A DNA stretch of 64,000 bases from a virus (IMGVR_UViG_3300027872_000004:6319-70318), one strand, 5' to 3'. Numbered from the stretch's first letter, positions 26,832-58,657 are shown. The notes: generated from the sequence alone by a model not told the origin. Program-made: numbers and translations.

Positions 26832-27511
26832 TCTATTCTGTGAGATTGACCCTCGATTACCCTGGCCTTGGCTGCCTTCTCCTGAAACCCCCGAAGCGTC
26901 TCGATGACCATTTCCAGGTCGTTCTGTGGCATGGCGCTGAAATCGATCGCATCTGCCTTGTCTCGGCGCATATTGAGATCGAGCATCAGCTTCTCACTGA
27001 ACATGCCGAGGTGCTTACCCAGGTTTACCAGGGCGCCGGCTTTGTCGTGAAGCACGTATTGGTAATCGAACTCCTCGCCATCGTCGGTCTTGATCAGTTG
27101 CTTGCTCCAGGACGATACCGCCAGGGCCTGCTGGTTGGTCAGGTCACTGATCGGCTTTCCGATCTCTCGGAGCTTACCGCTGATCGTCACGATCCGAACG
27201 TAGTCCTTGATATTCTGGAGGCCGATCGCTGACATCTCGCTCAGGATACGGGTGTTGGTGACATCGTAGTGCGCCTCCGCCAGTTGGTTCTTCTTTTCCT
27301 GGAGGAAAACGAAAAACGGCCTCAGCTTCTTCGCAAGTTTGTGCGATTCCACCTTGGCCGTGTTCCTGGTGTAGCCGGCGTTCATCATCGCCCTGAATGG
27401 CGGATAACCAAACTGGACTACCTGAAGGGCGAACTCCAGTTGCTTTTTCGTTCTAGGCCAGCCCCTCGTATTGTGGGGCTCGAACGAAATTGTCTCTGCT
27501 ATTGCGCTCAA
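26828..27511 (-). CDS. terS: terminase small subunit
   Basis: RA...AGY...TA HTH start; middle LHDK.GAL..LGKHLGMF motif typical of TerS. Confidence 0.8.
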   Translation of the reverse strand: MSAIAETISFEPHNTRGWPRTKKQLEFALQVVQFGYPPFRAMMNAGYTRNTAKVESHKLAKKLRPFFVFLQEKKNQLAEAHYDVTNTRILSEMSAIGLQNIKDYVRIVTISGKLREIGKPISDLTNQQALAVSSWSKQLIKTDDGEEFDYQYVLHDKAGALVNLGKHLGMFSEKLMLDLNMRRDKADAIDFSAMPQNDLEMVIETLRGFQEKAAKARVIEGQSHRID

Positions 27512-44397: not shown

Positions 44398-44652
44398 ATG
44401 GAAATTAGGATCGAGTCAGGCATCCCGATCCCAAAAGAGCGTCCGCAATTCAAATCTCACATCGAGAAGATGGAGATCGGAGATTCATTTCGGGTGCATG
44501 TCGAACACTGGACTTCGCTTCGGAACGCAGCAAGCAACATGAACAAACGTACCGCGAAAAAGTTCGTTGTTCAGAAAGTGAAGGAGCCAATCAATCCTGA
44601 CAGGAAGACCGGCGAGAAAATTGAGTTCGTCAGGATCTGGCGTAAATTTTAA
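44398..44652 (+). CDS. small DNA-binding-like protein
   Basis: IESGIPIP...MEIGDSF motif. Confidence 0.6.
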   Translation: MEIRIESGIPIPKERPQFKSHIEKMEIGDSFRVHVEHWTSLRNAASNMNKRTAKKFVVQKVKEPINPDRKTGEKIEFVRIWRKF

Positions 44653-44656
44653 TTAT

Positions 44657-44836
44657 GGAGCGGTGACGTAGCGGCAACCGTGCTGGTAGGGAGATTAGAA
44701 ATCTGGACGTTTTTTTCGTTTTCTTCCAGGTTAGGGGCAGCCCCCCATTACTCCCATCGACCAGTGGACCTCTCGGGCGATGACGCATTGCCGGATACGA
44801 AGTCCACGCCCAGGTTCAACTCCTGGGACGCTCCCA
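44657..44836 (+). ncRNA. tRNA-like structured RNA with expanded anticodon and variable arms
   Basis: Acceptor GGAGCG/CGCTCC; D-arm ACG-TAGCGGCAAC-CGT; stem CTGGT/ACCAG enclosing 72 nt; 42-nt variable arm; T arm CCAGG-TTCAACT-CCTGG. Confidence 0.7.
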
Positions 44837-44970: not shown

Positions 44971-45492
44971 ATGAAGTTTGATCTGACCCGTACTACCGCC
45001 AAGTTCGGCGTATTCAACCCGCGAGAGGAGAAGAACAAGGGCAACGCATTCGATCTACCGTTCTCGGTGACGCTGGGATCTTCGATCCTGGCAATGCTCG
45101 CACCGACCACCAATGTCGATGGAGATGACCAGGCCCTGGCTGAGCAGTTGTTCTCTGAGGAAGGCCACGTCTGTCGGCCATCGATCAACCCGATTCACGT
45201 CAACAGGAAACCCGAGGGCGCGATCGTCACAATCTGGGACCAGGAAGATTTCGGAGATCCGCTTGAGCTGAAACCCTGCAACCTGACTACGCTGAAGGCC
45301 GAGCTGCAAACACCCAACCAGGTTGTGCTGACCGGAAAGGTTCAATACTCTCAGTACTCAGATGCTGAGCTGGTCCGCATCAATGCGCTCATGAACAAAT
45401 CGTTCGACCTGCAAATCACCATCGAGCAACCGGATCTATTCGAGCACCCAGAGGGAGAAACCGAGGATAAGGACGAGGATCCCCAAGAGTAA
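44971..45492 (+). CDS. hypothetical protein
   Basis: AGGAG RBS; acidic C-terminus. Confidence 0.6.
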   Translation: MKFDLTRTTAKFGVFNPREEKNKGNAFDLPFSVTLGSSILAMLAPTTNVDGDDQALAEQLFSEEGHVCRPSINPIHVNRKPEGAIVTIWDQEDFGDPLELKPCNLTTLKAELQTPNQVVLTGKVQYSQYSDAELVRINALMNKSFDLQITIEQPDLFEHPEGETEDKDEDPQE

Positions 45493-45514: not shown

Positions 45515-45829
45515 ATGTCAGTATTTCATCCAGCCGCTAGGGCACAAGATCTCATCGATCGGCTAAAGTCTTTGACCAAGCCGATCGGTGAGGCTGAGAT
45601 GAAAGATCTGCCGGCAGCATGGGCCGAGCTGGAAGATCTTTTGATCATGATCGCCACGTCACGAAAACCAAGACTGGAACTCCAGCGAAAAGCTGATACC
45701 CTTGACTGCGTTATCGTCGCCATCGATAAACTACGGGACACGGAGAAAAGGGATGCTGATTCTGACCAGAACGCAAGGCGAATCAATACAGATCGGGGAA
45801 GCAGTGACGGTGACAGTGCTGGGAGTTAG
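45515..45829 (+). CDS. hypothetical protein
   Basis: ORF; overlaps csrA. Confidence 0.5.
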
Positions 45830-45950
45830 AGGTGGGCAGGTGCGAGTAGGCATTGATGCTCCAAAGCAGATCAAGGTTCTCCGAACGGAACTGCTGGATC
45901 GCGCACGTTCAACTCCGAGCAGCGAGTCGTCTGAGTCCGATACCGGCTAA
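45753..45950 (+). CDS. csrA: carbon storage regulator CsrA/RsmA homologue
   Basis: [37 protein letters not shown]. Confidence 0.9.
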
Positions 45951-47103: not shown

Positions 47104-47573
47104 GCGTAATCCTCGATCGTGATCCACACTTCGCCGTTCTCCACCTCGTCGATGATCTCCTGGTACAACCGCGTATAGGCAGACACTGAACTCATCACCA
47201 TGCCATCATCGAGGACGTTCGACTGCGCACCGTCACCGGTCAGAATGCAACCGTCAGTGTCCTTCTCGTAGTTCCCGTAGTGAATATAGACAAACGTGAA
47301 GTTGGGTACGTCCTGCAACCAGAGCATGCCGCGATGCCAGTCGAACTTATCGCTGTAGCGACCATGCATGCCGCCCTCAGTGCGCAACTTGATCCGGTAG
47401 CGCCCGGCCGGAATGCGCGTTTCACCTGGCACCTTCGGCTCGTTCGGCTGGTCCTCCATAGTGAAGTTGCGGAAGCTACGTTCATCCCCAACCTCGGCAT
47501 CCCGGTCGATAACGTACATTGCACCGATCGTGCTTTCGTCGCCGGTCGCGATTCGTTTCACCAAAAGTTCCAT
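47100..47573 (-). CDS. DUF5675-family putative endolysin
   Basis: STIG..., T.IPAGRY, L.DVPNF...YIH.GN...DT.GCIL.G. Confidence 0.75.
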   Translation of the reverse strand: MELLVKRIATGDESTIGAMYVIDRDAEVGDERSFRNFTMEDQPNEPKVPGETRIPAGRYRIKLRTEGGMHGRYSDKFDWHRGMLWLQDVPNFTFVYIHYGNYEKDTDGCILTGDGAQSNVLDDGMVMSSVSAYTRLYQEIIDEVENGEVWITIEDYA

Positions 47574-50500
47574 TACGATTGCCCCTCCAACGTCTTAACG
47601 AATCCCGCCCGAGGATTCTTTGGTAGCGAGCTGAGCAGCTCGGCCGTGTGATCCAGGCGCTGCTTGGCCAGGTAGTCAGTTCTTTGTTGTGGCGGCATAT
47701 CGATCAGTGTTTCCTGAAGCGCCTCGATCTGTATCTCGGCCGCACCTGGTCGCTCCATCCAAGCGTCTTTCGCGTTCTCCAGTTTTTCACGGTACAGGTC
47801 GTTCAACTCACGACTTTTCTGCTCCGGAGTCATATCCTCGTCTTCCCACAGATCGGTCGTGTCCTTACGCAACTTCTTGATCTCATTGTAACTGGACTCC
47901 ATTGCCTTGGATGCGTCCAGCACTTCCTGGTTGGTGTAGTTCGGATCGTACTTCGAGCCTTCCTCCATGAACTCATCGATCTCGTCGTCCATCTCCAGAC
48001 GTTCCATCTGGTTCACGGCCCGCTCGATCTGCCTGGCGTTGTTCCGCACATCGTACATGATTTCCTCGAAGCTGCTCCTGGCTGGAACTTCTTCACCACG
48101 GTAAAAGCGTCCGACCAGTGGAATCTTACTCCAACGAAGTTCTGGCCTGGCTGGGTAATCGAACTGCTTCCGTACCAGGTCGTCGGACAGCATCATCACG
48201 TAGCCACCCAGGGTCGCCAGGTAACCACGCATCAGGTGTTCCATAAGCAACGGATTGCGCATGATGTCTGGAGAGAAGTTCGGCATCACTTTGGCCAGCT
48301 CCCGCATGCTCGGGCTGGTGCTTGATCGAAACACTAGTTCAGGCTTCACCTCTGCAATGTCCTGCATGTACTCCGGAACGATCGGTGCCTGGAAGAAAGC
48401 GTTCCAGTTGGTGGTCGCCTCAAACAGCGGTGCAATGAACTGAGGTAAAGGAACGATCGTCTGCGGATTGAAGAAGTTGAACACCTCACCCAGCACGAAC
48501 CACAGTCTATCGATCGCGACTCTGCCGGCGTCGTCCTCATTGGAGTAGTAGTACTCGAACATTCGCTCGACGCCTACACCAAAAACCATTCCCACCTCGA
48601 ACGATTTCGGCAATCGCCAGTGTTTACCGTTCACCTTGAAGTGGACATACATATCCTTTTCTTCTGGTGGCAGAGCTTTGTACCACTCCTCGTCCTTGTT
48701 CTTCAGCCACACGGCCAAGACCGCCATGGCATACAGCATCGACTTGGTAAAGGTAATGCCTGGCGCCTCCTGGAATCTCTGCCCGTAGCGAACCAGGCCC
48801 TGGATCCTGGCGTTAAGGAACATCACGCTCTGCGCGAAGAACTGCATAATCGCATGATCGCCGTGCTTGGCGAAATTCATGATGTCCTTCGACTCCCAGA
48901 CAGCCTCAGCCTTACCGGCACCAGCCTTGATCGCCGGGATGTAGGCACTACCAATACGATTCGCGTTCTCCGATGCAGCGGCGATGTCGTTGTAGAAGTG
49001 GAAGATCTTCCATGGCGCATCGAGGACTCTGTTCTTGAATCCTGTCTGTCGCAAGGCTCGCTTCATTGCCTTCACGGTCGAGATAGGATCGTTGGCGTTG
49101 ATATAGCCAGAATAGAAAGCGCCACCGGCAGCCATCATGGAAATCATCTCATCGGACTTGGTGAAAGCCTTCCATGCTCCAGTCGCTGCCGACCAGGGCC
49201 TGGGCAACTTCGCATGCCGCGAGTTGACGAATGCCATGAAGATGTCCCGGAACCAGTTCGCCGCCATGAATCCTGGTGTCAGGGTGATCATTGACGTGCC
49301 GAGGCGCTTAAACTTACGTGGAAGCCACATGCCCATGCGGCCCATAAGACTTGCAAATTTCTTCTCGTTGATCGCAGTCAGCGATCGAAGCAATGTTTCT
49401 TCGTGAACCTCGAACCACTTCTTCTTGCCGTTGTAGAGGACCGACATAAAATTATCACCCTGCGGTCTCTGAAGGGTCCACATCTTCTGCATGCCGGCCA
49501 GTGCTTCGGGAGACATCGCCTCCCAATCAACAGCAGCCTTCCGCAATTTTCGTTTCAGCTCATCCATCGGGATGAACTCCTGCTTCATGAAATCCTGACC
49601 CTTGGCTGGCGTAATCAAACCAGTCTCTTTCAGGTTCTCTACAGCCAGTTGAGAGGCTTTGTTCTTCATCGTGGCTGTCGCGATATGCTGGAAATTGATG
49701 ATGATGTTTTCCAGAATGTCACCTAGCGGATGCTTGGATCCGAGCAGTCGCTTGATCGGCTGTGCCACGTTCGCGATACCTGGTCCGCCCATGCCGGCCC
49801 GCTTCGCAAAAGAGCCACCCATCTCGTCGGACTTGATACGATAGAACGGAACGTAGTCAGCCTGATCCCATAGCGGCCTGGTGTCCGAATTGAGAACACC
49901 AGCCTCCTCGGCCCAGTCCAGGAATTGCGTCTTCCAGTCATTGAAGGCATCGGATACTGTCTGAAATTCCGGGAACCGCTCACCCAGTTTCAGAAGCTCA
50001 TCGATTCGCTCCCTGGTAAATAAAGCCTCACGTCCTTCACGTAACAAACGATCAGCACGAACAGCGGCCTTCCAGTAGCCCCAGTAGGTGATTTTATCAG
50101 CGACAGGTTCCAGCACCTCCAGCAAACCTTTGCTGCCAGGCTTGATCCCAGTGATCGTTCCGGCGCCGACCTTCTCCCAGTACGGAACACCGTGCGTCAG
50201 GAACACGAACATCTGTGAGTCCATGCTGGTGGTGAAGTGAGCTTGCTTGTAGGCATTGATCTCGGCCGGCAACTCATGACCATGCGTCTGTTTGATGGCC
50301 CACTTCAGGCCGGAAAACTGATCGACCATGGCCTGTTCAATCTTGACCTGCTTTTCTTCGATCGCGATGACTTCGTTGATGCGCTGTTGCAACCGTTCGA
50401 GTGATCGAGGTCCTTGTGGTCCGATGTTTTTTTCGGCCCAGTTCAGTGCATCGTCGAGACCAGGATCCCCTGTTTTTTTCTTGCCGCGCTTATGGAATAA

Positions 50501-53500
50501 CGGAAAACCTGAGCGAGCTGTTTCCTTGAGTTTATCGGTGAACTCGATCTCCCATGCCTCGTACCCCCAGGCCCGCTCTGAAGCACTCTTTAATGCCTCA
50601 TCCAAAGCATTCTGAGCATCCTGTCTGTTCTGGTGATAGCCGCCCTGCAATCTGAATACATTCGGATCTTCTTCTGCTGGAACCTCCGAGCCCCAAATAC
50701 CACGATCCTCTGGTGCTATTACCGTATTTCCCCAGGCTTCCTCATACATTTCAGAGTTCACGCCACCACTGATATGTTTGATCACTTCATCGGTGGTCAA
50801 TCGTCTGACTCGTGCCTGCTTCCATCTCTCCCAATGCTTTCCAGGTTTGGTTCTTACCGCGAGCCCTTGTCTTTCAACTTGCTCACGGACACTTATCGAA
50901 CCTTCAGATCCTGGGATCCAGGTATCGACAACCTTGGCCTTGAATTTCTTCAGGAACTTGTTGAGCATCTGTGGCGTGATGACGTTATAGATCACCCTGG
51001 ATCCGGTCAACCGCTTGCCACCACCGGAGGTCGGTATGAGAAGTGATTTCAGTCCAACATCTTCACCAGATACAAGTCCAGAATCATCTTCATGCTCAAG
51101 GATAAACCTGGCTGCTCGATCACCAACGATAGTACGTAGATCCCTGCTGTTGGTTTCAATGACTCGACCACCAGCAGGATTCACGAGAATAATTCTGAAG
51201 GACCCTCGTTTGATTTCCTTTGGTTTGCCGGTGAACATATCAATGGTCTTGTCGTCCGCCATGAAACCTTCTTTATTGAATCGAAGCTCATCTACCGTTT
51301 CAGCCCCAGACCAGCGAACACCGTGCACCTCTCCCTTCGAGAGATAAATCCGGTCATGGCCGTTCCGAACGGCATCAGCGATCAGGCCCTTCATCACCAG
51401 AAGTTGCCAGTCCTTCTCGAATGGCGCGAAGGTCATGCCGCTTTTGAATCGTTCGTATCTCTCCTTTGACTCGTGAAATTCAAGGACCCTTGCACCCATA
51501 TCTGTATACATCGTCTTATCGATAGAAAATGTAAACGGCTTGACCTCAGCCCTTTCAAAATCCTCTTTATTTACTACGTGTTCACCTGCCCTCGATTGAG
51601 TGGACAGTTTATCCATAACTTCAGACAATCGAATCCACAGCTCAGGAATCCTGCCAGCATAAGCTCCACCCCAGGAACGATCTTGAGTTTCTTCGTGAAT
51701 GAGAGCCTTATCCCATAGATCTTTGTTCAGCGTTTTGCTGGTTACTTCACGATATCTTTTTGCTCGCGCTTCCTCGTTGGTTGGATCTAACAGTTTCTTG
51801 GAAGCAGCACTAAGAACCTCCATCTCTATTTCATTGAAGGTTGTCCCAGTCCAATCAGGCAGGTCTCGTGGTTTCCTTTTAGCGTTCCTGTACTTCCCGA
51901 CCTTATTGGCGAAATTATCTTCGTATAGATCTTGCATCCATCCGGCTGGATCATCACCTGTCGCGTTAAATTGCTTAACTGACACTCCGTTATCCCAAAC
52001 GAACTCCTTCATCTTCTCGTTGAACTCATCGACACTGATCAACTTCGCATCCAATTGTTGACCTGCCTCGCTCTTGCGCGCTTTTCGGTAGGCGGCAAAA
52101 GATAAATTCTCAATCTCTGTCAGGTCAGCATAAAATCCGTGGCTCTCGTAGATCTCATCTTGAATCTCAACCTGTTGATGTCCCAGTATCTCCCCACGTT
52201 TTGTTCTCGCGCCCGCGATATTCGAGCTGTACGTGCGAAGCATGCTTTGAGCAACACCAGTGTAAGCTCCGGTCACCAACCGATCGACGAGCGTTGCCAA
52301 CGGATCGGACATATAGTATCCCCAAGACCTGATGTCGCTCATCATTTTTTCACGATGATTTCGGAGTTCCTTGTAATCAGCCTCAGCCTTCTTCTTCCAT
52401 CGATCTTGTTCAGTAGGATTACTGATCGCCTGATCCCTGGCTTCAATCAACATATCCGCTGGAGATGTTTCGTCCCAGGCATCGCCACCACCGATCGTCC
52501 CATCAGGATTGACGTAATCTGGATCGTACTCATGCTCAGCATGAACCTCCTCCAGTTTGCTTTTTATGGCATCGCGAATCTCCTGGTGCCAGTCAGACTG
52601 AATCTCGTCAACGTAGTACGCATCTTCTCCGTTTAGATCCTTTCGAGTATCCAACCTGGCATGAGCAACCATGTCTTCCTCCTCGCCCCAATGCCCGGAA
52701 CTGCCGTATCCACCTCCTCTTGGATTGGTCCACTTGAACAGCAGTTCCTGATAGTCCTCGCCGGTCGGTTCCAGCATGTACTCTTTCCAGCGACCACTTG
52801 CGCCTTCCTGATTGGCTTCATCTGCCGCTTGAACAGCATCATCAAAATTACTGTAGTAACCGTGGTCGGCACCTTCCTCCATATGGGTAACAACGAAGTC
52901 GCCATCAGAATCAGTCTGGATGGAGTAATTGCCTGAGTACCAGCTTTTCTGGGTGTTCTTTTCAACCCACTCGTCACGTTCCTCCGTATAATAATCTTGC
53001 TCAATGTCCTCCCTGGTGCGATCTTCGGCCTCCTCCTTCATGGTTTCTTCAGTGGTTCCATCCCAATTGTCAGTTTCGTAATTCAGTTCCTCAAGATCCA
53101 TATCTGCTTCTTTAGCAATATCTGGATCCGCTTCGAGATCAGGATCCCATCCATGCTCGGAGTGAACCTCGATCAGCATATCCGGGTAAACACTCCCCCA
53201 ATGAAACTGCTCGATGGGTTCCCAATGTTCGTACCAGTCATCTTCATCTGGCGCGGTCTGTTCATCCGGACTGTCTTCGTCAAAATATAGATCTTCTGCT
53301 TCGCCACCTGGCTGGTACATCTCGATGCCCACACCATTGCGAGTAATGAACGACAAGATAGTATCCTTCGGAATTTTCTTCGGACTGGTCCGACCGAACG
53401 CTTCCAGCTCACCGTTCATTGATTCGTATATTTCTTCATCAACGGCAAGGTCACGCTGCTCATTGACCGGAAGGAACTGGAGATAGTCGTTATCTTTTAT

Positions 53501-56500
53501 CCATTCATCTTTGATCCTTTTGGCTTTAGCATTGTATTTAGCAGCCAACTCCGCTGTCTCACGATATTCTTGATTGAATGCTTCAAGTTGAAGTTTTCTC
53601 GCTTTTTCCCTAATAGCACCATTCTGTTCACCAAGCCTGCGATGCTGCACAAGCAGGTCGTATTTATCCCTGGGGAAGACATCCTTCAAAGCAGAAAATG
53701 TTTCGTCATGATGGCCAAAACCACCAGCAGCAGCATAGAAAACATCGTCCCAGGTGATATCTTCCATGAACTCTTTCAGGCCCATCCAGTCCAGCTCGGA
53801 CTGTTTCATTTTGCCCTTGTTGATCTGGCCCTTGACGAACTGCATCCAGCCATCGGCTGATGCTGCTTTGGTGTCAGAATCGTTGAAGGCAGTCCACGCT
53901 TGGGAGAAATAATACGGCGACGACATATGACGTAGCCGACCGCGCTGTACCGATCGTTTGTAACCGCTTGCGGACTGCACGAAGTTGCTCGACTCAGCGA
54001 TCATCGACATGATCTGCCCATCCGTGAACATCGTCGCCTTGCCTGTCATATAGCGAATGAAGTTCTTCAGGGCCTTGACGATCTCATCGAGCAGCTTCCT
54101 GGCCTGGCTCTTAACCTTGCGTCCCGCCAGAACTCGCTGAGCGGTATGAGCGATGAACTCCTCGGCGGCTACCCGACGCTCATTGATGTTGTTCCAGTCG
54201 TGTCCGTACAGTTTTGCTATCTCGCGCACTTCTTTCGGGAATGATTCGGCCACCTTGTCCATGACCGCATCGAACTCCCAAGGCTTGATCGTTTGCCTGA
54301 GCCCGAAGTGACCGATGACCTCGTGCAACATCGTCTCGATTGCCTCAGCCGTATCGGTGACATTGTTCGCGATGATGTAGATGTCATCCATGAACGCGCC
54401 CTGGTCATAGATCCCGGTGGTATTGCGACGATCCTCCTCGGTCTCCAAGGTTAATCGGAGATGTCTCGGAAGATCCTCGATCGATTGGACAACTCTGACC
54501 GGTGGCACAGTACGGAACATGCTGTAGATCGGACGAAGGACAGCCTGAATTTCATCGACCGTCTTTCCTCTGCCGGCGTTCGTTCCTCGGAATCGACTCA
54601 ACTTGTCTGGCCGGCGATGGAAGTAGGTAGTGTTACGATCATGGAAACCAGGCATGCCGGAAAACGCTTGGTCTCTATTCGGCCCGAGTACAGCATCCAG
54701 GGCCCTGATATCTGTGTTGTCACCAAAAGTCAGCGCGTTCTTGGCAGCCTCCTGATCATTGGCAACGACAATCATGGCAGATGCATTAGATTTTGAGACC
54801 GCCGCTAAAATTCTCCCGGCACCAGAAGTTGAATCTTCAGTACGTAAAAGTTTCCAGTCATCAACAGGAACGATCGCAACAACCTGGTGTTTTGTATTCA
54901 GCAAAATCGCATGCTCACCAGGAGAGGTTGCCCTGGCAGCAGCTACAGTATCCTTGGGAGATTCGATTCTCCTGCCAGGTTTGCCAAAGTTCCTGAATCG
55001 TCTCTCGACAACGCTGATGTCTTCCGTTCTCGCCAATGGTTGAATGCTGATACTCCGACTTGAAGCAGAATGAGGAGCGAGATATGAAGCCTTGCCGCCA
55101 GGAGCAACCACGACCGATCCCTTAAAATCTATTCCTGTTTTATCTAATTGCCTGCGAAATTTTGCCGCTAACCTCTCGTCTGCAAGGCTCTGACTCCCCT
55201 CTCCGCTAGGATGGTTGTGCACCATCCACACATTTTTGGCGCCATCAATCGCAAAGACAGATCCCAGGTAGATCGGTATCTGCGCTGAAGCTGCATCAGT
55301 TGCACCAATTGAATGACGAATAACGGACAGCACGTTTTGCTGTTCATCGGTGACCACAGCCATCAGGCTTTCCTGGGCCTCACGCCTCAACGGCGCGACC
55401 AGGTGAGCAACCTGCGAAGCATCGGTAACCTTCTTCAGCCCAGACCTGAAGATTCCAGTTTCAATCAGCTTGACGTTCGGACTGGCAAAATCATTCGGAT
55501 CTGCTGCCAGGTTTACCGTGTAGACCTGTTGCTCAACCTGATTCGTTCCAGGAACATTCGCCCCCAACTGAGACCTGTGAATCTCATAACGAACATCGCC
55601 TTCCTCAACGGATTGTGGATGAAGCTCGTCCCTGCTTTCTGGTTTGGCGGTCTCAGATGCCAGGGTCTCAGTGATCTGCACCTCGTCGATCGAACTGACG
55701 TTGCCATCGGTAACCGCCATTCGTTTGGTGTTCGCCGCATCCAGCCACTCGCGAAGTTCCTTGGTGGTCATGGCGACAGCGGACCCGAGAAGCGCACCAC
55801 CGTCATCGTAGTTGCGGCGATACCCTTCCATGGCTTCCTCGGTGGTCCGGTAGCCAAGCATCACCTTATGCTCGTCAAAGTTGTTCGAGCCGATCGGCCT
55901 ATCAGGATCCTTCTTCTGGTTGACGATCAGTGCACGGCCGCTGTCCGGGTACTCACCGACAAATACATCCACCTGGTCAAAGCCGCCTTTGCCATCTCGC
56001 TCTTTGCTCTCGGTGCCCTTGATGTAACCGTAGTCATCCTGCATGGTGATGGACCACGGCTTCCCACTTTTATCCACTCCAGAGCGTTCCATTCCCTTGG
56101 CGGTCTCAATCGTGACCGGCAGTGAATCGATCCGCATGTGGGCCTTACGGTAGGTGCCAGCTTCCTTAATGGCCTCGGACTTCGGCTCCTCTACCCGACG
56201 AGTAGCTGCTTTTTGACGAGCCCGAATCGATCGACGTGGCTCATCCTTGTCAGAGCGAAAGGTCTCGGTTGGGCTGATCTCATCTTCCTCGGCCGTAATC
56301 GCGACTCCTTCGCGCACCATGTCGTACTTCTTAATCAGCGCATCGATGGCCGCAAACATCGCATTGGTGACCTGAATGCCTTGTGTTTTCCTCCTGGCCT
56401 GGATGTTCTGGAACATCGCGCCTATTCCTTCACCCTCCAGAAATGCATTCTCGATCGCCATATTGGTGATCAATGGATAGACGCTCTTAACTCGATCGAT

Positions 56501-58657
56501 GAAATTTTTTGCCCATTCCGCATCGACCATATTTCTGGCTGTAGGCTTTTTCCCTGGAGTTGGTTTCGCTCGCGCATGTCGTTGCAATGGAGGCATCGAA
56601 CCAGCCAAATCAGCAATCGACTCAGGGATCTCTAGTTCTGTTTTTGATGAATCGTTTTTCGAGATCTGATCACCGGCATACAGGCGCACACTCTGCCTTT
56701 GCAGTCCTGGCTCTCTCCGCTTGTATGTTTCCTCCTCCCTGCCAGAAGGTGAGACACGCTGATACCTGATAGCATCATCATCAGGCTCTCCCTGGGCCGC
56801 TTGTTGTGCCAGCTCCAGGATCACTTTGAGTTGATCTTCCAGAGACGAGACCTGCTTGTGACCTGCCGGTAATGCTTCGATTTGATCAGTGATCTCGATA
56901 ATCTGGTTGTACTGTTCTTCACTGAGGCCAGCCCATCTCTTTGCCAGGCTGTCCTGGATAGCTGGATTCAACTTGGAAAAGCCAGTTATCTGTTCGACTG
57001 GCGGTTTCATGAACTCAGGACGCAAAACCCTGTCGCCTTCCAAGATAATTTCCTCGACCTCCTCATCGACCTCGATGCCAGTTTCAGCCTGGCGAAGCTG
57101 CTCAATCAGTCGCTTACCTTTGGGCAAGATCATGACCCGTTCTTCCTCACCGATGAACCGGCCGTATTTCTCGTTGGTCAGGGTGAACTGCTCATCGATC
57201 GTCAGTGGATCTCCCCTGCCGGCCCGCTCCAGCAGATCCAGATCCACGTCCAATTTATTCAGACCCATAGCCTTGGCTTCAGCCTCGGAGATCTCGCCGG
57301 CCTCCTCAGAGGGCAGGACTGTCTTTCCGCGCTTCGCCTTCTTCGGATCGAGCTTCAGGTCTGCCTGGGTGGTGTCGCGATACAGCGGGTGCGTGAGTGA
57401 TGCCAGGGAGCCGCCAACACCGAACCCGATGATGGCCGAACGCTTCAGCATCTGGAGACCTTCCTTGGTGGTGGTCATCTCCAGCAGGGCCTCACCGAAG
57501 CTCATCTCCTTATCGATGATGCCCTTGGTGTACGCTTCCTGAATAAGCTGCGTAAGCGGCTCCTGGAGAGCCTCAGCGCCGCCTGCCTTGAGAACCCGCG
57601 CCAAGAACCTACCGCCCTCCTTGGTCAGTATGCCCAGTGGTACACGTTCTGAGACGATCTCAGCAGCAGCATTGACTATCCCATCCATGACCGATTCGCT
57701 GTGCGAACGCCCCTTCTCGATCGACTCAGCATACTGGTCAGCAAATACCTGCCCGCCCATGAAGGCAGCGCCCACTGATGGACTCCTGGTTACAGCAGCC
57801 GCGATCAATGCCGGCGCCATATTGATCGATCCCTCGATGATCGCTCCGGCGTAGTACTTGGCGCTGTCCTCCCTGACGTTCGGCTGGTAATTCTCCAGGT
57901 ACTGCTTTGCCTCCTGGGTCATGCGGAGACCTTCTTGCAGGTCCGCGCTCTCTCCGGTCTGCTTGAGCAGTTCCATGTAGTAGTCGGATGGTTCCTTACC
58001 CTGGGTGAAAGCCTCGACTTCCAGGGCGAAGCTGTCTTCCGGAGCAACACCCTGGTCTGCGGCCGACTCCAGGATGTAGGCAAGATCTCGTGGCGCGTTC
58101 AGAAACATTTTGGCGCCGCCGTACTGGCGTTTGAACATGGCCGGCACGTTGGTTATCGTGTCCCAGATCACCAGGCCCCAGGGATCCTCTCCTTTGGTCT
58201 TCTCGAACGAGGGAGTTTTACCGCCCATCATTTCGACCTTGACCGGTTCACTCACCTGGTCAGGATCTCCACGCAGGTAATCAGTCAGCGCGATCTCTGC
58301 TTCTTCCTCGGGTAGCTCTGCCTGGCCGGCGCGTACCAGGGCTGAGTGAGAGGGTGGCTTGCTCCTACCAGGCATGGTGCCAGGCACGTTGCCACTACCG
58401 AAGATGTCACGGTTCAGCTTGATGTTCTGCTTGGTGATCTCCCGCGCTTCGTCGCGAGTGAACTTGCGCTCAGGCTTCAGGTTCTCGCGCCAGTCCTGGA
58501 ACGCATCGAAAGCACCAGAGAAAAATCCAGGCTCCTCCGGATCCGGAATAGAGACACGAGATGGCAGCGTGGTATCACGCTCCTCATCGACGATCGAAAC
58601 AGGTTGAGCTTCCTCGACCTCTTGTTCGTCTTCTTCGGCTACGATCGATACAGGCAT
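47573..58657 (-). CDS. giant polyvalent internal virion (ejection) protein, 3694 aa
   Basis: N-terminal Gly/Ala helices; PPase-like (DQVDVFVG, FDEHKVMLG); JAB (HNHPSG..S..D); zincin HEVIGH; acidic tract; EIQSDWHQ; C-terminal LPD38-like. Confidence 0.85.
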   Translation of the reverse strand: MPVSIVAEEDEQEVEEAQPVSIVDEERDTTLPSRVSIPDPEEPGFFSGAFDAFQDWRENLKPERKFTRDEAREITKQNIKLNRDIFGSGNVPGTMPGRSKPPSHSALVRAGQAELPEEEAEIALTDYLRGDPDQVSEPVKVEMMGGKTPSFEKTKGEDPWGLVIWDTITNVPAMFKRQYGGAKMFLNAPRDLAYILESAADQGVAPEDSFALEVEAFTQGKEPSDYYMELLKQTGESADLQEGLRMTQEAKQYLENYQPNVREDSAKYYAGAIIEGSINMAPALIAAAVTRSPSVGAAFMGGQVFADQYAESIEKGRSHSESVMDGIVNAAAEIVSERVPLGILTKEGGRFLARVLKAGGAEALQEPLTQLIQEAYTKGIIDKEMSFGEALLEMTTTKEGLQMLKRSAIIGFGVGGSLASLTHPLYRDTTQADLKLDPKKAKRGKTVLPSEEAGEISEAEAKAMGLNKLDVDLDLLERAGRGDPLTIDEQFTLTNEKYGRFIGEEERVMILPKGKRLIEQLRQAETGIEVDEEVEEIILEGDRVLRPEFMKPPVEQITGFSKLNPAIQDSLAKRWAGLSEEQYNQIIEITDQIEALPAGHKQVSSLEDQLKVILELAQQAAQGEPDDDAIRYQRVSPSGREEETYKRREPGLQRQSVRLYAGDQISKNDSSKTELEIPESIADLAGSMPPLQRHARAKPTPGKKPTARNMVDAEWAKNFIDRVKSVYPLITNMAIENAFLEGEGIGAMFQNIQARRKTQGIQVTNAMFAAIDALIKKYDMVREGVAITAEEDEISPTETFRSDKDEPRRSIRARQKAATRRVEEPKSEAIKEAGTYRKAHMRIDSLPVTIETAKGMERSGVDKSGKPWSITMQDDYGYIKGTESKERDGKGGFDQVDVFVGEYPDSGRALIVNQKKDPDRPIGSNNFDEHKVMLGYRTTEEAMEGYRRNYDDGGALLGSAVAMTTKELREWLDAANTKRMAVTDGNVSSIDEVQITETLASETAKPESRDELHPQSVEEGDVRYEIHRSQLGANVPGTNQVEQQVYTVNLAADPNDFASPNVKLIETGIFRSGLKKVTDASQVAHLVAPLRREAQESLMAVVTDEQQNVLSVIRHSIGATDAASAQIPIYLGSVFAIDGAKNVWMVHNHPSGEGSQSLADERLAAKFRRQLDKTGIDFKGSVVVAPGGKASYLAPHSASSRSISIQPLARTEDISVVERRFRNFGKPGRRIESPKDTVAAARATSPGEHAILLNTKHQVVAIVPVDDWKLLRTEDSTSGAGRILAAVSKSNASAMIVVANDQEAAKNALTFGDNTDIRALDAVLGPNRDQAFSGMPGFHDRNTTYFHRRPDKLSRFRGTNAGRGKTVDEIQAVLRPIYSMFRTVPPVRVVQSIEDLPRHLRLTLETEEDRRNTTGIYDQGAFMDDIYIIANNVTDTAEAIETMLHEVIGHFGLRQTIKPWEFDAVMDKVAESFPKEVREIAKLYGHDWNNINERRVAAEEFIAHTAQRVLAGRKVKSQARKLLDEIVKALKNFIRYMTGKATMFTDGQIMSMIAESSNFVQSASGYKRSVQRGRLRHMSSPYYFSQAWTAFNDSDTKAASADGWMQFVKGQINKGKMKQSELDWMGLKEFMEDITWDDVFYAAAGGFGHHDETFSALKDVFPRDKYDLLVQHRRLGEQNGAIREKARKLQLEAFNQEYRETAELAAKYNAKAKRIKDEWIKDNDYLQFLPVNEQRDLAVDEEIYESMNGELEAFGRTSPKKIPKDTILSFITRNGVGIEMYQPGGEAEDLYFDEDSPDEQTAPDEDDWYEHWEPIEQFHWGSVYPDMLIEVHSEHGWDPDLEADPDIAKEADMDLEELNYETDNWDGTTEETMKEEAEDRTREDIEQDYYTEERDEWVEKNTQKSWYSGNYSIQTDSDGDFVVTHMEEGADHGYYSNFDDAVQAADEANQEGASGRWKEYMLEPTGEDYQELLFKWTNPRGGGYGSSGHWGEEEDMVAHARLDTRKDLNGEDAYYVDEIQSDWHQEIRDAIKSKLEEVHAEHEYDPDYVNPDGTIGGGDAWDETSPADMLIEARDQAISNPTEQDRWKKKAEADYKELRNHREKMMSDIRSWGYYMSDPLATLVDRLVTGAYTGVAQSMLRTYSSNIAGARTKRGEILGHQQVEIQDEIYESHGFYADLTEIENLSFAAYRKARKSEAGQQLDAKLISVDEFNEKMKEFVWDNGVSVKQFNATGDDPAGWMQDLYEDNFANKVGKYRNAKRKPRDLPDWTGTTFNEIEMEVLSAASKKLLDPTNEEARAKRYREVTSKTLNKDLWDKALIHEETQDRSWGGAYAGRIPELWIRLSEVMDKLSTQSRAGEHVVNKEDFERAEVKPFTFSIDKTMYTDMGARVLEFHESKERYERFKSGMTFAPFEKDWQLLVMKGLIADAVRNGHDRIYLSKGEVHGVRWSGAETVDELRFNKEGFMADDKTIDMFTGKPKEIKRGSFRIILVNPAGGRVIETNSRDLRTIVGDRAARFILEHEDDSGLVSGEDVGLKSLLIPTSGGGKRLTGSRVIYNVITPQMLNKFLKKFKAKVVDTWIPGSEGSISVREQVERQGLAVRTKPGKHWERWKQARVRRLTTDEVIKHISGGVNSEMYEEAWGNTVIAPEDRGIWGSEVPAEEDPNVFRLQGGYHQNRQDAQNALDEALKSASERAWGYEAWEIEFTDKLKETARSGFPLFHKRGKKKTGDPGLDDALNWAEKNIGPQGPRSLERLQQRINEVIAIEEKQVKIEQAMVDQFSGLKWAIKQTHGHELPAEINAYKQAHFTTSMDSQMFVFLTHGVPYWEKVGAGTITGIKPGSKGLLEVLEPVADKITYWGYWKAAVRADRLLREGREALFTRERIDELLKLGERFPEFQTVSDAFNDWKTQFLDWAEEAGVLNSDTRPLWDQADYVPFYRIKSDEMGGSFAKRAGMGGPGIANVAQPIKRLLGSKHPLGDILENIIINFQHIATATMKNKASQLAVENLKETGLITPAKGQDFMKQEFIPMDELKRKLRKAAVDWEAMSPEALAGMQKMWTLQRPQGDNFMSVLYNGKKKWFEVHEETLLRSLTAINEKKFASLMGRMGMWLPRKFKRLGTSMITLTPGFMAANWFRDIFMAFVNSRHAKLPRPWSAATGAWKAFTKSDEMISMMAAGGAFYSGYINANDPISTVKAMKRALRQTGFKNRVLDAPWKIFHFYNDIAAASENANRIGSAYIPAIKAGAGKAEAVWESKDIMNFAKHGDHAIMQFFAQSVMFLNARIQGLVRYGQRFQEAPGITFTKSMLYAMAVLAVWLKNKDEEWYKALPPEEKDMYVHFKVNGKHWRLPKSFEVGMVFGVGVERMFEYYYSNEDDAGRVAIDRLWFVLGEVFNFFNPQTIVPLPQFIAPLFEATTNWNAFFQAPIVPEYMQDIAEVKPELVFRSSTSPSMRELAKVMPNFSPDIMRNPLLMEHLMRGYLATLGGYVMMLSDDLVRKQFDYPARPELRWSKIPLVGRFYRGEEVPARSSFEEIMYDVRNNARQIERAVNQMERLEMDDEIDEFMEEGSKYDPNYTNQEVLDASKAMESSYNEIKKLRKDTTDLWEDEDMTPEQKSRELNDLYREKLENAKDAWMERPGAAEIQIEALQETLIDMPPQQRTDYLAKQRLDHTAELLSSLPKNPRAGFVKTLEGQS

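Follow-up and report, generated by a model that had tools for sequence, protein, structure and literature searches.

Here we describe an RNA gene of a marine tailed phage whose product keeps the body of a transfer RNA (tRNA) and has lost the anticodon loop. The gene occupies positions 44657-44836 of the plus strand (180 nucleotides, nt) in the window, by which we mean the whole 64,000-nt stretch of viral DNA that was analysed (IMGVR_UViG_3300027872_000004:6319-70318). The complete tRNA body is retained, one extra stacked pair is added to it, and the anticodon loop is replaced by a folded module that differs from lineage to lineage. Tentatively, we read the gene as encoding a stable, non-decoding RNA that descends from a class II serine-type tRNA and acts through its tRNA body. 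An original prediction, made from the window itself, had proposed a tRNA-shaped RNA without an anticodon loop and had called it the best candidate for an undescribed element. The expected parts are indeed found in the sequence, their helices are kept by compensatory changes in homologues, and neither an Rfam family nor an ARAGORN call covers the RNA.

The gene lies within a 318-nt gap between two open reading frames (ORFs) of the same strand (44398-44652 and 44971-45492). Its RNA forms a class II cloverleaf with an acceptor stem, a D arm, a CUGGU/ACCAG anticodon stem, a variable arm and a canonical T arm. The parts are as follows, with stem lengths in base pairs (bp):

44657-44663, plus strand, 5' strand of the acceptor stem (GGAGCGG), partner of 44828-44834; Watson-Crick from 1:72 to 6:67, with G.A at 7:66
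44664-44682, plus strand, U8 G9 connector, D arm and G26; 3-bp D stem (ACG/CGT) and a loop with A14, G15 and GG
44683-44687, plus strand, 5' strand of the anticodon stem (CTGGT), whose partner is ACCAG at 44760-44764
44688-44759, plus strand, 72-nt insert in place of the anticodon loop, a three-way junction
44689-44693 and 44751-44755, plus strand, base stem of the insert (GGGAG/CTCCC), whose pairs covary
44700-44732, plus strand, insert hairpin 1, 8 bp with a U-rich 17-nt loop
44712-44730, plus strand, part of the hairpin-1 loop that has 18 of 19 nt in common with 27298-27316 (minus strand), a stretch within the terS ORF
44734-44746, plus strand, insert hairpin 2 (GGGG/CCCC)
44760-44764, plus strand, 3' strand of the anticodon stem (ACCAG)
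44765-44808, plus strand, oversized variable arm of 44 nt, with outer stem TGGAC/GTCCA and an interrupted inner helix
44809-44827, plus strand, T arm, with a 6-bp stem (CCCAGG/CCTGGG) and the loop TTCAACT (T54 T55 C56 R57 A58)
44828-44836, plus strand, 3' strand of the acceptor stem (ACGCTCC) and the conserved tail CA

Within this layout the D arm proper spans 44666-44681 and includes A14 and the GG; its loop measures about 10 nt. The elbow nucleotides G18 G19 and T54 T55 C56 are all present. Minimum-free-energy folding gives the same arrangement (-72.3 kcal/mol, z = -2.87), and 1 of 200 shuffles folds equally well. The D arm with its U8, A14 and GG, the CTGGT/ACCAG stem and the T arm lie where they had been predicted. 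The same holds for the insert, in which the GGGAG/CTCCC stem, the 8-bp hairpin with its 17-nt U-rich loop and the GGGG/CCCC hairpin agree with the minimum-free-energy fold. The variable arm, by contrast, had been given as 42 nt; its TGGAC/GTCCA outer stem is present, but the length is 44 nt. As had also been claimed, there is no 7-nt anticodon loop: the 72-nt insert stands between CTGGT and ACCAG, and no 7-nt loop can be recovered from the bases that flank it.

Homologues, covariation and the stacked acceptor domain

Homologues were sought by three routes: through the downstream protein, with exact patterns taken from the T arm and acceptor, and with a D-arm pattern. There are 16 distinct variants of 91-186 nt in the same slot of related marine phage contigs, and one more in an unrelated contig (loci are given below as L numbers). 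Eight close variants measure 125-178 nt to the end of the acceptor strand. Their bodies are identical save for single substitutions in L022, L027 and the window, and their middles are unrelated in sequence and length. Further members are:

L028 and L035, 155 nt, acceptor GGGGCAG/ATGCCCT
L034, 185 nt, acceptor GGAGTGG/ACACTCC
L037, 101 nt, 22-nt hairpin insert
L032, 93 nt, GCG-GUAA-CGC hairpin within the loop
L030, 121 nt (L030:1816-1936), cloverleaf with the 7-bp acceptor and 6-bp T stem kept
L033, 90 nt, compact, with a 7-nt loop
L036, 91 nt, compact, with a 6-nt loop
L053, 134 nt, in the unrelated, GC-rich contig, with the anticodon arm sealed as one long hairpin and a 51-nt variable arm

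All variants fold independently as the same four-arm cloverleaf, and the family occurs naturally without an insert, with a hairpin insert and with a three-way-junction insert. Neither the window nor most of the variants have a 7-nt anticodon loop. In L030 both elbow motifs are gone together, the D loop lacking GG and the T loop reading TGAATGT. The D-arm pattern scan of IMG/VR returned one true new member, L053, and about a dozen other matches without a T arm, which fit chance or coding sequence. Separately, one IMG/VR contig group (L041-L050, e.g. L047:2250-2404) has a conserved element of about 130-150 nt that likewise lacks a T arm. It has a 20-nt string in common with the D arm of the window RNA, probably by chance, and the stretch may be coding.

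Derived from the eight close variants, a covariance model recovers the other variants at E-values of 1e-35 to 1e-3. The covariation figures come from a 13-sequence alignment fitted to this model, and hence lean towards the structure: 97.8% of pair cells hold standard pairs, and in 20 of the 31 pairs both partners have changed. Of 500 column shuffles, none attains any of the observed measures, and when the 3' partners are slid by 1-3 columns the pairing falls to 37.5-47.5%. A hand-made register table of all 16 variants, which is independent of the model, leads to the same result. The exception is the D stem, where the model took an alternative register and helix 2 is without both-side changes; in the hand-made table the canonical D stem reads ACG/CGT or CCG/CGG.

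Taken helix by helix, acceptor pairs 2:71 to 6:67 are compensatory in relatives, and 1:72 varies on one side only. The anticodon stem covaries, with CUAGU/ACUAG, GGUGA/UCAUC and AACGA/UCGUU in relatives, as does the outer stem of the variable arm (G:C/A:T, A:T/G:C and C:G/A:T across variants), and five of the six T-stem pairs, the outermost included, change on both sides. Even a tertiary pair covaries: at the elbow of L033, G19:C56 is replaced by A19:U56 through a change of the second D-loop G to A together with that of T-loop C56 to U. A covariance model from related phage contigs had been proposed with the original prediction as a check on it, and the homologues do covary.

The acceptor domain departs from that of a canonical tRNA by a single layer. 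A 7-bp acceptor stem and a 6-bp T stem give 13 stacked layers, as opposed to 12 (7 + 5), and relative to serine tRNA (tRNA-Ser) the family has exactly one extra nucleotide, located between the T stem and the 3' strand of the acceptor. This nucleotide is assigned to a sixth T-stem pair because the outermost T pair covaries (C:G, U:A, G:C and A:U) and the alternative partner, U8, is unable to pair with that 3' base in four lineages. A 13-bp acceptor/T stack like that of selC, the gene for selenocysteine tRNA (tRNA-Sec), had been predicted, with the acceptor at 44657-44664/44827-44834. The 13 layers stand, but they are split 7/6 and not 8/5 as in selC, and the acceptor is accordingly 44657-44663/44828-44834. 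At the innermost acceptor pair, 7:66, six lineages, the window among them, have a G.A mismatch, and three have G:C.

Right after the stem comes a conserved C(C)A tail: the window has CA, and 7 of the 16 variants have CCA directly next to the stack. The claim that an in-register CCA is missing thus holds for the window, yet the family is characterised by a CCA-like tail. Counted from the elbow, 13 pairs and CCA cover the same nucleotide span as 12 pairs, a discriminator base and CCA. The geometry of tRNA-His includes a paired G-1:C73; that the stack and CCA of this family match that geometry is a lead, not a finding.

Between the window and six relatives, DNA identity is 88-95% in the tRNA body, 62-79% in the flanking genes and 46-62% in the insert and variable arm. 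Judged from these sequence comparisons, with identity in the body above that of flanks and arms and with insert-free compact members (L033, L036) retained at the same slot, the tRNA body is the part under strongest selection and the common selected unit. Retention at the slot does not depend on the insert. The inserts are not junk either: the three-way junction of the window type recurs with compensatory changes in L024, L006, L028 and L034, and the variable-arm stems covary.

Such covarying arms could be cargo. It is possible, though we find it doubtful, that the family is a natural tRNA scaffold, whose body would serve only for ribonuclease P (RNase P) and 3' processing and for stability, while a module in the anticodon arm, the variable arm or both would be active and bind a phage-specific protein or nucleic acid. 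A comparable design is the engineered tRNA scaffold of Ponchon and Dardel, in which an RNA module is placed in the anticodon arm and the tRNA body gives processing and stability (PMC3753655, PMC3401473). The maintenance of the junction by compensatory changes argues for cargo of this kind, as do the covarying variable-arm stems and the motifs that the junction subclade shares, namely the base GGGAGAUUAGA ... CUCCC and a GAUCAUC-like hairpin-1 loop. However, unlike that artificial design, the family conserves its body most and not its insert, and versions free of cargo exist and are kept at the slot. Moreover, the cargo is wholly different between close relatives (L002, L019 and the L003 type as against the window type), and the body is conserved in sequence past the needs of processing.

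Serine-type ancestry and comparison with other tRNA-like RNAs

The window RNA escapes the tools with which tRNAs are commonly annotated. ARAGORN in default mode reported 0 genes in the window, with introns allowed no sensible tRNA, and in the mode for transfer-messenger RNA (tmRNA) nothing. Neither the window nor the complete 72.8-kilobase (kb) virus record yielded a tRNA or tmRNA, even when introns were permitted, and over its default, intron, tmRNA and relaxed modes, applied to the window, the whole genome and related loci, nothing sensible was obtained for the window RNA. Rfam searches of the window gave nothing at gathering thresholds, noise only at E up to 10 and no tRNA match, and in E-value mode ten related loci gave no real family. 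Even the compact relatives are missed by Rfam: the general tRNA model RF00005 does not match L033, whose best Rfam match is tRNA-Sec at 15.6 bits against a cut-off of 47 bits, and L036 has no Rfam tRNA match. This indicates that the whole family is non-canonical, and not its long members alone. The comparison with ARAGORN and Rfam, which the original prediction had itself suggested, therefore matched no known family, and no published description of the RNA family was found. Among cultured phages, blastn with the RNA region and tblastn with the small upstream ORF (two versions) gave no match. An exact-pattern scan of GTDB genome contigs for the T arm and acceptor gave 0 matches, which means that there is no identical host tRNA and no attP-type relation.

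Nevertheless, the body is closest to bacterial class II tRNA-Ser. ARAGORN in default mode calls the natural compact homologue L033 tRNA-Ser(AGA), and both L033 and L036 align with the tRNA-Ser of phage T4 over the full length, bar one extra T-stem pair; together these results suggest a serine-type ancestry. With bacterial and phage class II tRNA-Ser (e.g. that of T4) the RNA has in common the G1 G2 A3 start, U8 G9, a 3-bp D stem with C11:G24, an AGCGG-type D loop, a CYGGU/ACCRG-like anticodon stem, a long variable arm and the T54 T55 C56 R57 A58 loop. In contrast to it, the window family has no anticodon loop, a 6-bp T stem, G.A at 7:66, a C after the stem and a variable arm that reaches 46 nt, or 51 nt in L053. 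When a 7-nt loop was put in place of the insert in silico and the variable arm was trimmed, ARAGORN called a tRNA in 8 of 8 variants tested, and in L027 replacement of the insert alone sufficed; the 'Ser' label of these calls stems from the loop supplied and is uninformative on identity. The features on which seryl-tRNA synthetase (SerRS) of E. coli relies are a long variable arm, G2:C71, A3:U70, C11:G24 and G73. All variants have the long variable arm and C11:G24. G2:C71 and A3:U70 are found in the window and vary in relatives, and a C follows the stem.

In accordance with the original prediction, the RNA almost certainly does not read codons: the window and most variants have no 7-nt loop, the loop of L036 is 6 nt long, and RF00005 misses even L033. 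We consider it very unlikely that the gene encodes a decoding tRNA-Ser whose insert is an intron removed after transcription. The tRNA-Ser(AGA) call for compact L033 would agree with such a gene, but the intron mode of ARAGORN yields no sensible tRNA, and the bases on either side of the insert, however combined, never make a loop that has both U33 and a position-37 purine. These flanks vary between variants (AG...NCG, CU...UGC, CG...UGC) and the variable arm is expanded too, and the 6-nt loop of L036 and the failure of RF00005 on L033 count against an intron as well. So does the enzymology, since we know of no protein-dependent tRNA-splicing endonuclease in bacteria for introns of this type.

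Among RNAs with unusual tRNA bodies, one candidate for comparison is tRNA-Sec (selC, RF01852). The family resembles it in the 13 stacked acceptor/T pairs and the long variable arm, and tRNA-Sec is the best sub-threshold Rfam match of the compact relative. To this extent, the resemblance to a tRNA-Sec scaffold that had been proposed is real, if weak on the side of Rfam. The defining features of selC are nevertheless absent: the split is 7/6 where selC has 8/5, the D stem has 3 bp with a loop of about 10 nt where selC has 6 bp and a 4-nt loop, and there is no UCA anticodon. These three differences rule out selC identity.

The absence of the G3:U70 pair of tmRNA had been pointed out correctly, position 3:70 being A:U in the window and G:C, U:A, C:G or A:U in relatives. 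The further suggestion of a mini tmRNA-like RNA has to be abandoned. Besides the missing G3:U70, the D and anticodon stems are full, the inserts have no conserved length or reading frame, and the tmRNA mode of ARAGORN is empty, so that tmRNA is ruled out.

The species 1 and species 2 RNAs of T4 (rnaC and rnaD) are small stable phage RNAs of 119-139 nt that are not known to have an assigned function. They are the tRNA-like RNAs that have been known longest from phages, they are encoded with tRNA genes, and rnaC combines a canonical T arm with large extra hairpins. However, rnaC is without the clear D arm and anticodon stem of the window RNA, and the T4 RNAs reside in a tRNA cluster whereas the window RNA stands alone in a protein-coding operon. 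Past the T arm, no sequence or model similarity is detectable between the T4 species and the family (E = 0.16 with the family covariance model).

YrlA-type Y RNAs (Ro60/Rsr) are similar in being non-coding RNAs with a tRNA-like module. The 5' and 3' ends of YrlA reportedly lie in the Ro-binding stem and not in the acceptor stem, as Chen and colleagues are said to have found in 2014. The ends of the window RNA form the acceptor stem, a scan of the complete 72.8-kb record for the TROVE/Ro60 domain gave no match, and there is no Rfam match; on these grounds a YrlA-type Y RNA was rejected.

The operon and its neighbouring genes

The source record has terS, terL, portal, DnaB-type helicase and RecT genes, as befits a tailed phage. 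The RNA belongs to a block of genes on the same strand, in the order exonuclease-like ORF, 160-amino-acid (aa) ORF, 84-aa ORF, RNA, 173-aa ORF, 104-aa ORF and csrA. The block is followed by converging genes, the last of which is a 3694-aa ORF. The neighbours that bear on the RNA, and this last ORF, are:

44398-44652, plus strand, 84-aa ORF, whose stop lies 4 nt upstream of the RNA (6 nt in L003)
44971-45492, plus strand, 173-aa ORF downstream of the RNA, with an acidic C-terminal tail
45753-45950, plus strand, csrA homologue (Pfam CsrA, E = 6e-22), about 0.9 kb downstream of the RNA
47573-58657, minus strand, 3694-aa ORF, whose versions in relatives have InPase and LPD38 domains

No sigma-70-like promoter was seen near the RNA or between the 84-aa ORF and the RNA. 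With no promoter-like site and a start only 4 nt past the stop codon, the RNA is most simply part of the operon transcript, and co-transcription fits. A location of this sort recalls the t-elements of plant mitochondria (PMC1920247), and in an alternative that we regard as distinctly improbable the RNA would be operon punctuation of the same kind. The fold would direct cleavage by RNase P and RNase Z/E between the small ORF and the downstream genes and set the ends and stabilities of the mRNAs, and the excised RNA would have no role. The position in a same-strand operon, right after a stop codon and with no promoter-like site, is what such a signal would call for, and the parts that RNase P needs (the acceptor/T stack and the elbow) are conserved while the arms that it ignores vary freely. 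But the D arm and anticodon stem are conserved in sequence too, the non-canonical 13-layer stack and the 7:66 G.A are maintained across lineages, and the inserted arms are under structural selection. Any ordinary tRNA would do for such a signal. This pure processing signal and the scaffold with active cargo are the main rivals to an RNA that acts through its body.

A homologue of the 84-aa ORF lies directly upstream of the RNA in every clade locus whose upstream flank is covered, and the RNA of the unrelated contig L053 is likewise directly preceded by a remote homologue (BLASTP E = 1e-6). However, with 475 cluster representatives this protein family is large, and of its distant homologues two that were sampled are not followed by the RNA, so that a coupling of the 84-aa ORF with the RNA is suggestive at best. 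Another two homologues could not be located in IMG/VR. The only match of the 84-aa ORF is PHROG 10287, and its predicted fold, at a predicted local distance difference test (pLDDT) score of 82, has no significant structure match. For the 173-aa ORF, there was no Pfam or PHROG match, all Atlas matches are 'hypothetical', and the predicted fold (pLDDT 76) has no significant match in the PDB (Foldseek E at least 0.018, VIA Z at most 6.8).

The csrA gene overlaps the 104-aa ORF upstream of it, and no clade locus of sufficient extent is without it. This constant presence, together with NGGAN at the stem-loop boundary of several variable hairpins, would suit an RNA that binds the phage CsrA as a CsrB/RsmZ-like sponge or partner, an idea to which we attach very little credence. 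Known CsrA sponges have 5-20 exposed GGA motifs. In the variable parts of this family 20 GGA were observed against 15.3 expected (P = 0.07), with 1-3 per variant, which is no significant enrichment. No compact member has more than one GGA beyond the acceptor stem.

The match between the hairpin-1 loop and terS extends to about 24 of 25 positions with a 2-nt gap and has the same sense as the terS mRNA; as 0 of 300 shuffles gave its like, it is unlikely to be due to chance. It could suggest a guide or mimic RNA aimed at terS or the packaging region, which we find hardly credible. Although the match is real, its sense is that of the mRNA, and the 44712-44730 segment is absent from all relatives of the RNA, whose hairpin-1 loops have 4-9 nt. 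In addition, the middle parts of the other variants have no match to the examined portions of their own contigs. The segment is more like a one-off templated insertion, and may be one. With the match confined to a single phage, in the sense of the mRNA and in a segment that relatives lack, there is little to recommend the tRNA-protected guide scaffold that had been put forward for this RNA.

Further along, the 3694-aa ORF looks like a polyvalent virion or ejection protein. It was considered as an N4-like virion RNA polymerase, which was set aside because its relatives carry InPase and LPD38 domains.

Three observations concern the loci of relatives. Directly after the compact tRNA-Ser(AGA)-like gene, L033:1070-1500 holds an ORF with HNH-endonuclease-like motifs by eye, which may be a homing endonuclease that has inserted beside the RNA gene. 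Between the RNA slot and a 213-aa ORF, L036:1080-1260 is a long tandem array of GAGCGGGAGCTGGAGC-like units. Finally, L039:10-168 is a second, unrelated tRNA-shaped element, in which a 7-bp acceptor is followed by ACCA and the D arm is class I-like. Its anticodon loop contains a GGGG-GAUA-CCCC hairpin, some 70 nt of structured sequence take the place of the variable arm, and it receives no ARAGORN call.

A possible role for the tRNA body

If the RNA is, as we tentatively propose, a stable derivative of a serine-type tRNA that works through its body, its life would begin in the operon transcript. Host RNase P and the 3' tRNA maturation machinery would cut it out, with completion of the CCA. The modelled structure is compatible with this, as it presents the form of an RNase P substrate, an acceptor/T coaxial helix with a T/D-loop elbow, embedded in that transcript. 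The RNA would then accumulate in the manner of a tRNA and, having no anticodon, would be unable to decode. By analogy with tRNA-Sec, the 13-layer stack probably disfavours EF-Tu. Its target would be a host or phage protein that reads the class II shape and the acceptor end and not the anticodon, and to this protein the body would be a mimic, a competitor or a dedicated substrate; SerRS or a defence toxin that modifies tRNA acceptor ends are candidates. The expanded arms would be accessory additions specific to subclades.

Several observations weigh against this proposal. Inside one subclade the three-way-junction insert is itself conserved, with covariation and with common motifs at the base and in the hairpin-1 loop, and for this reason it may have a function of its own and not be an accessory. 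Among the SerRS identity elements of E. coli, pairs 2:71 and 3:70 vary among lineages, and the discriminator-like base is C and not the G73 of bacterial tRNA-Ser. Lastly, neither the folds of the 84-aa and 173-aa proteins nor the TROVE scan identified a partner protein.

The original prediction had also suggested a decoy for anticodon nucleases or tRNA-sensing defences, which the RNA may be. A broader idea, which we consider unlikely but worth stating, is that phages have evolved dedicated 'blind' class II tRNAs. These would be bodies derived from tRNA-Ser, kept off the ribosome by the 13-layer stack and a sealed or expanded anticodon arm, and would serve as decoys or substrates for enzymes that recognise tRNA shape and the acceptor end and ignore the anticodon, such as SerRS or the nucleotidyltransferase-type abortive-infection toxins that target tRNA-Ser. 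If this is true, blind tRNAs would form a new class of RNA-based counter-defence or a non-ribosomal carrier of aminoacyl groups. Phage tRNA genes are now being re-read as counter-measures against host defences that target tRNAs. The present family displays what evolution keeps, the whole body with a non-canonical extra stacked pair, and what it discards, the anticodon, and this combination points to a job off the ribosome. Small and well defined, and with insert-free, hairpin and junction forms side by side, the family lends itself well to testing ideas on the wider set of cargo-bearing, tRNA-shaped phage RNAs, which go unreported by standard tRNA finders and by Rfam.
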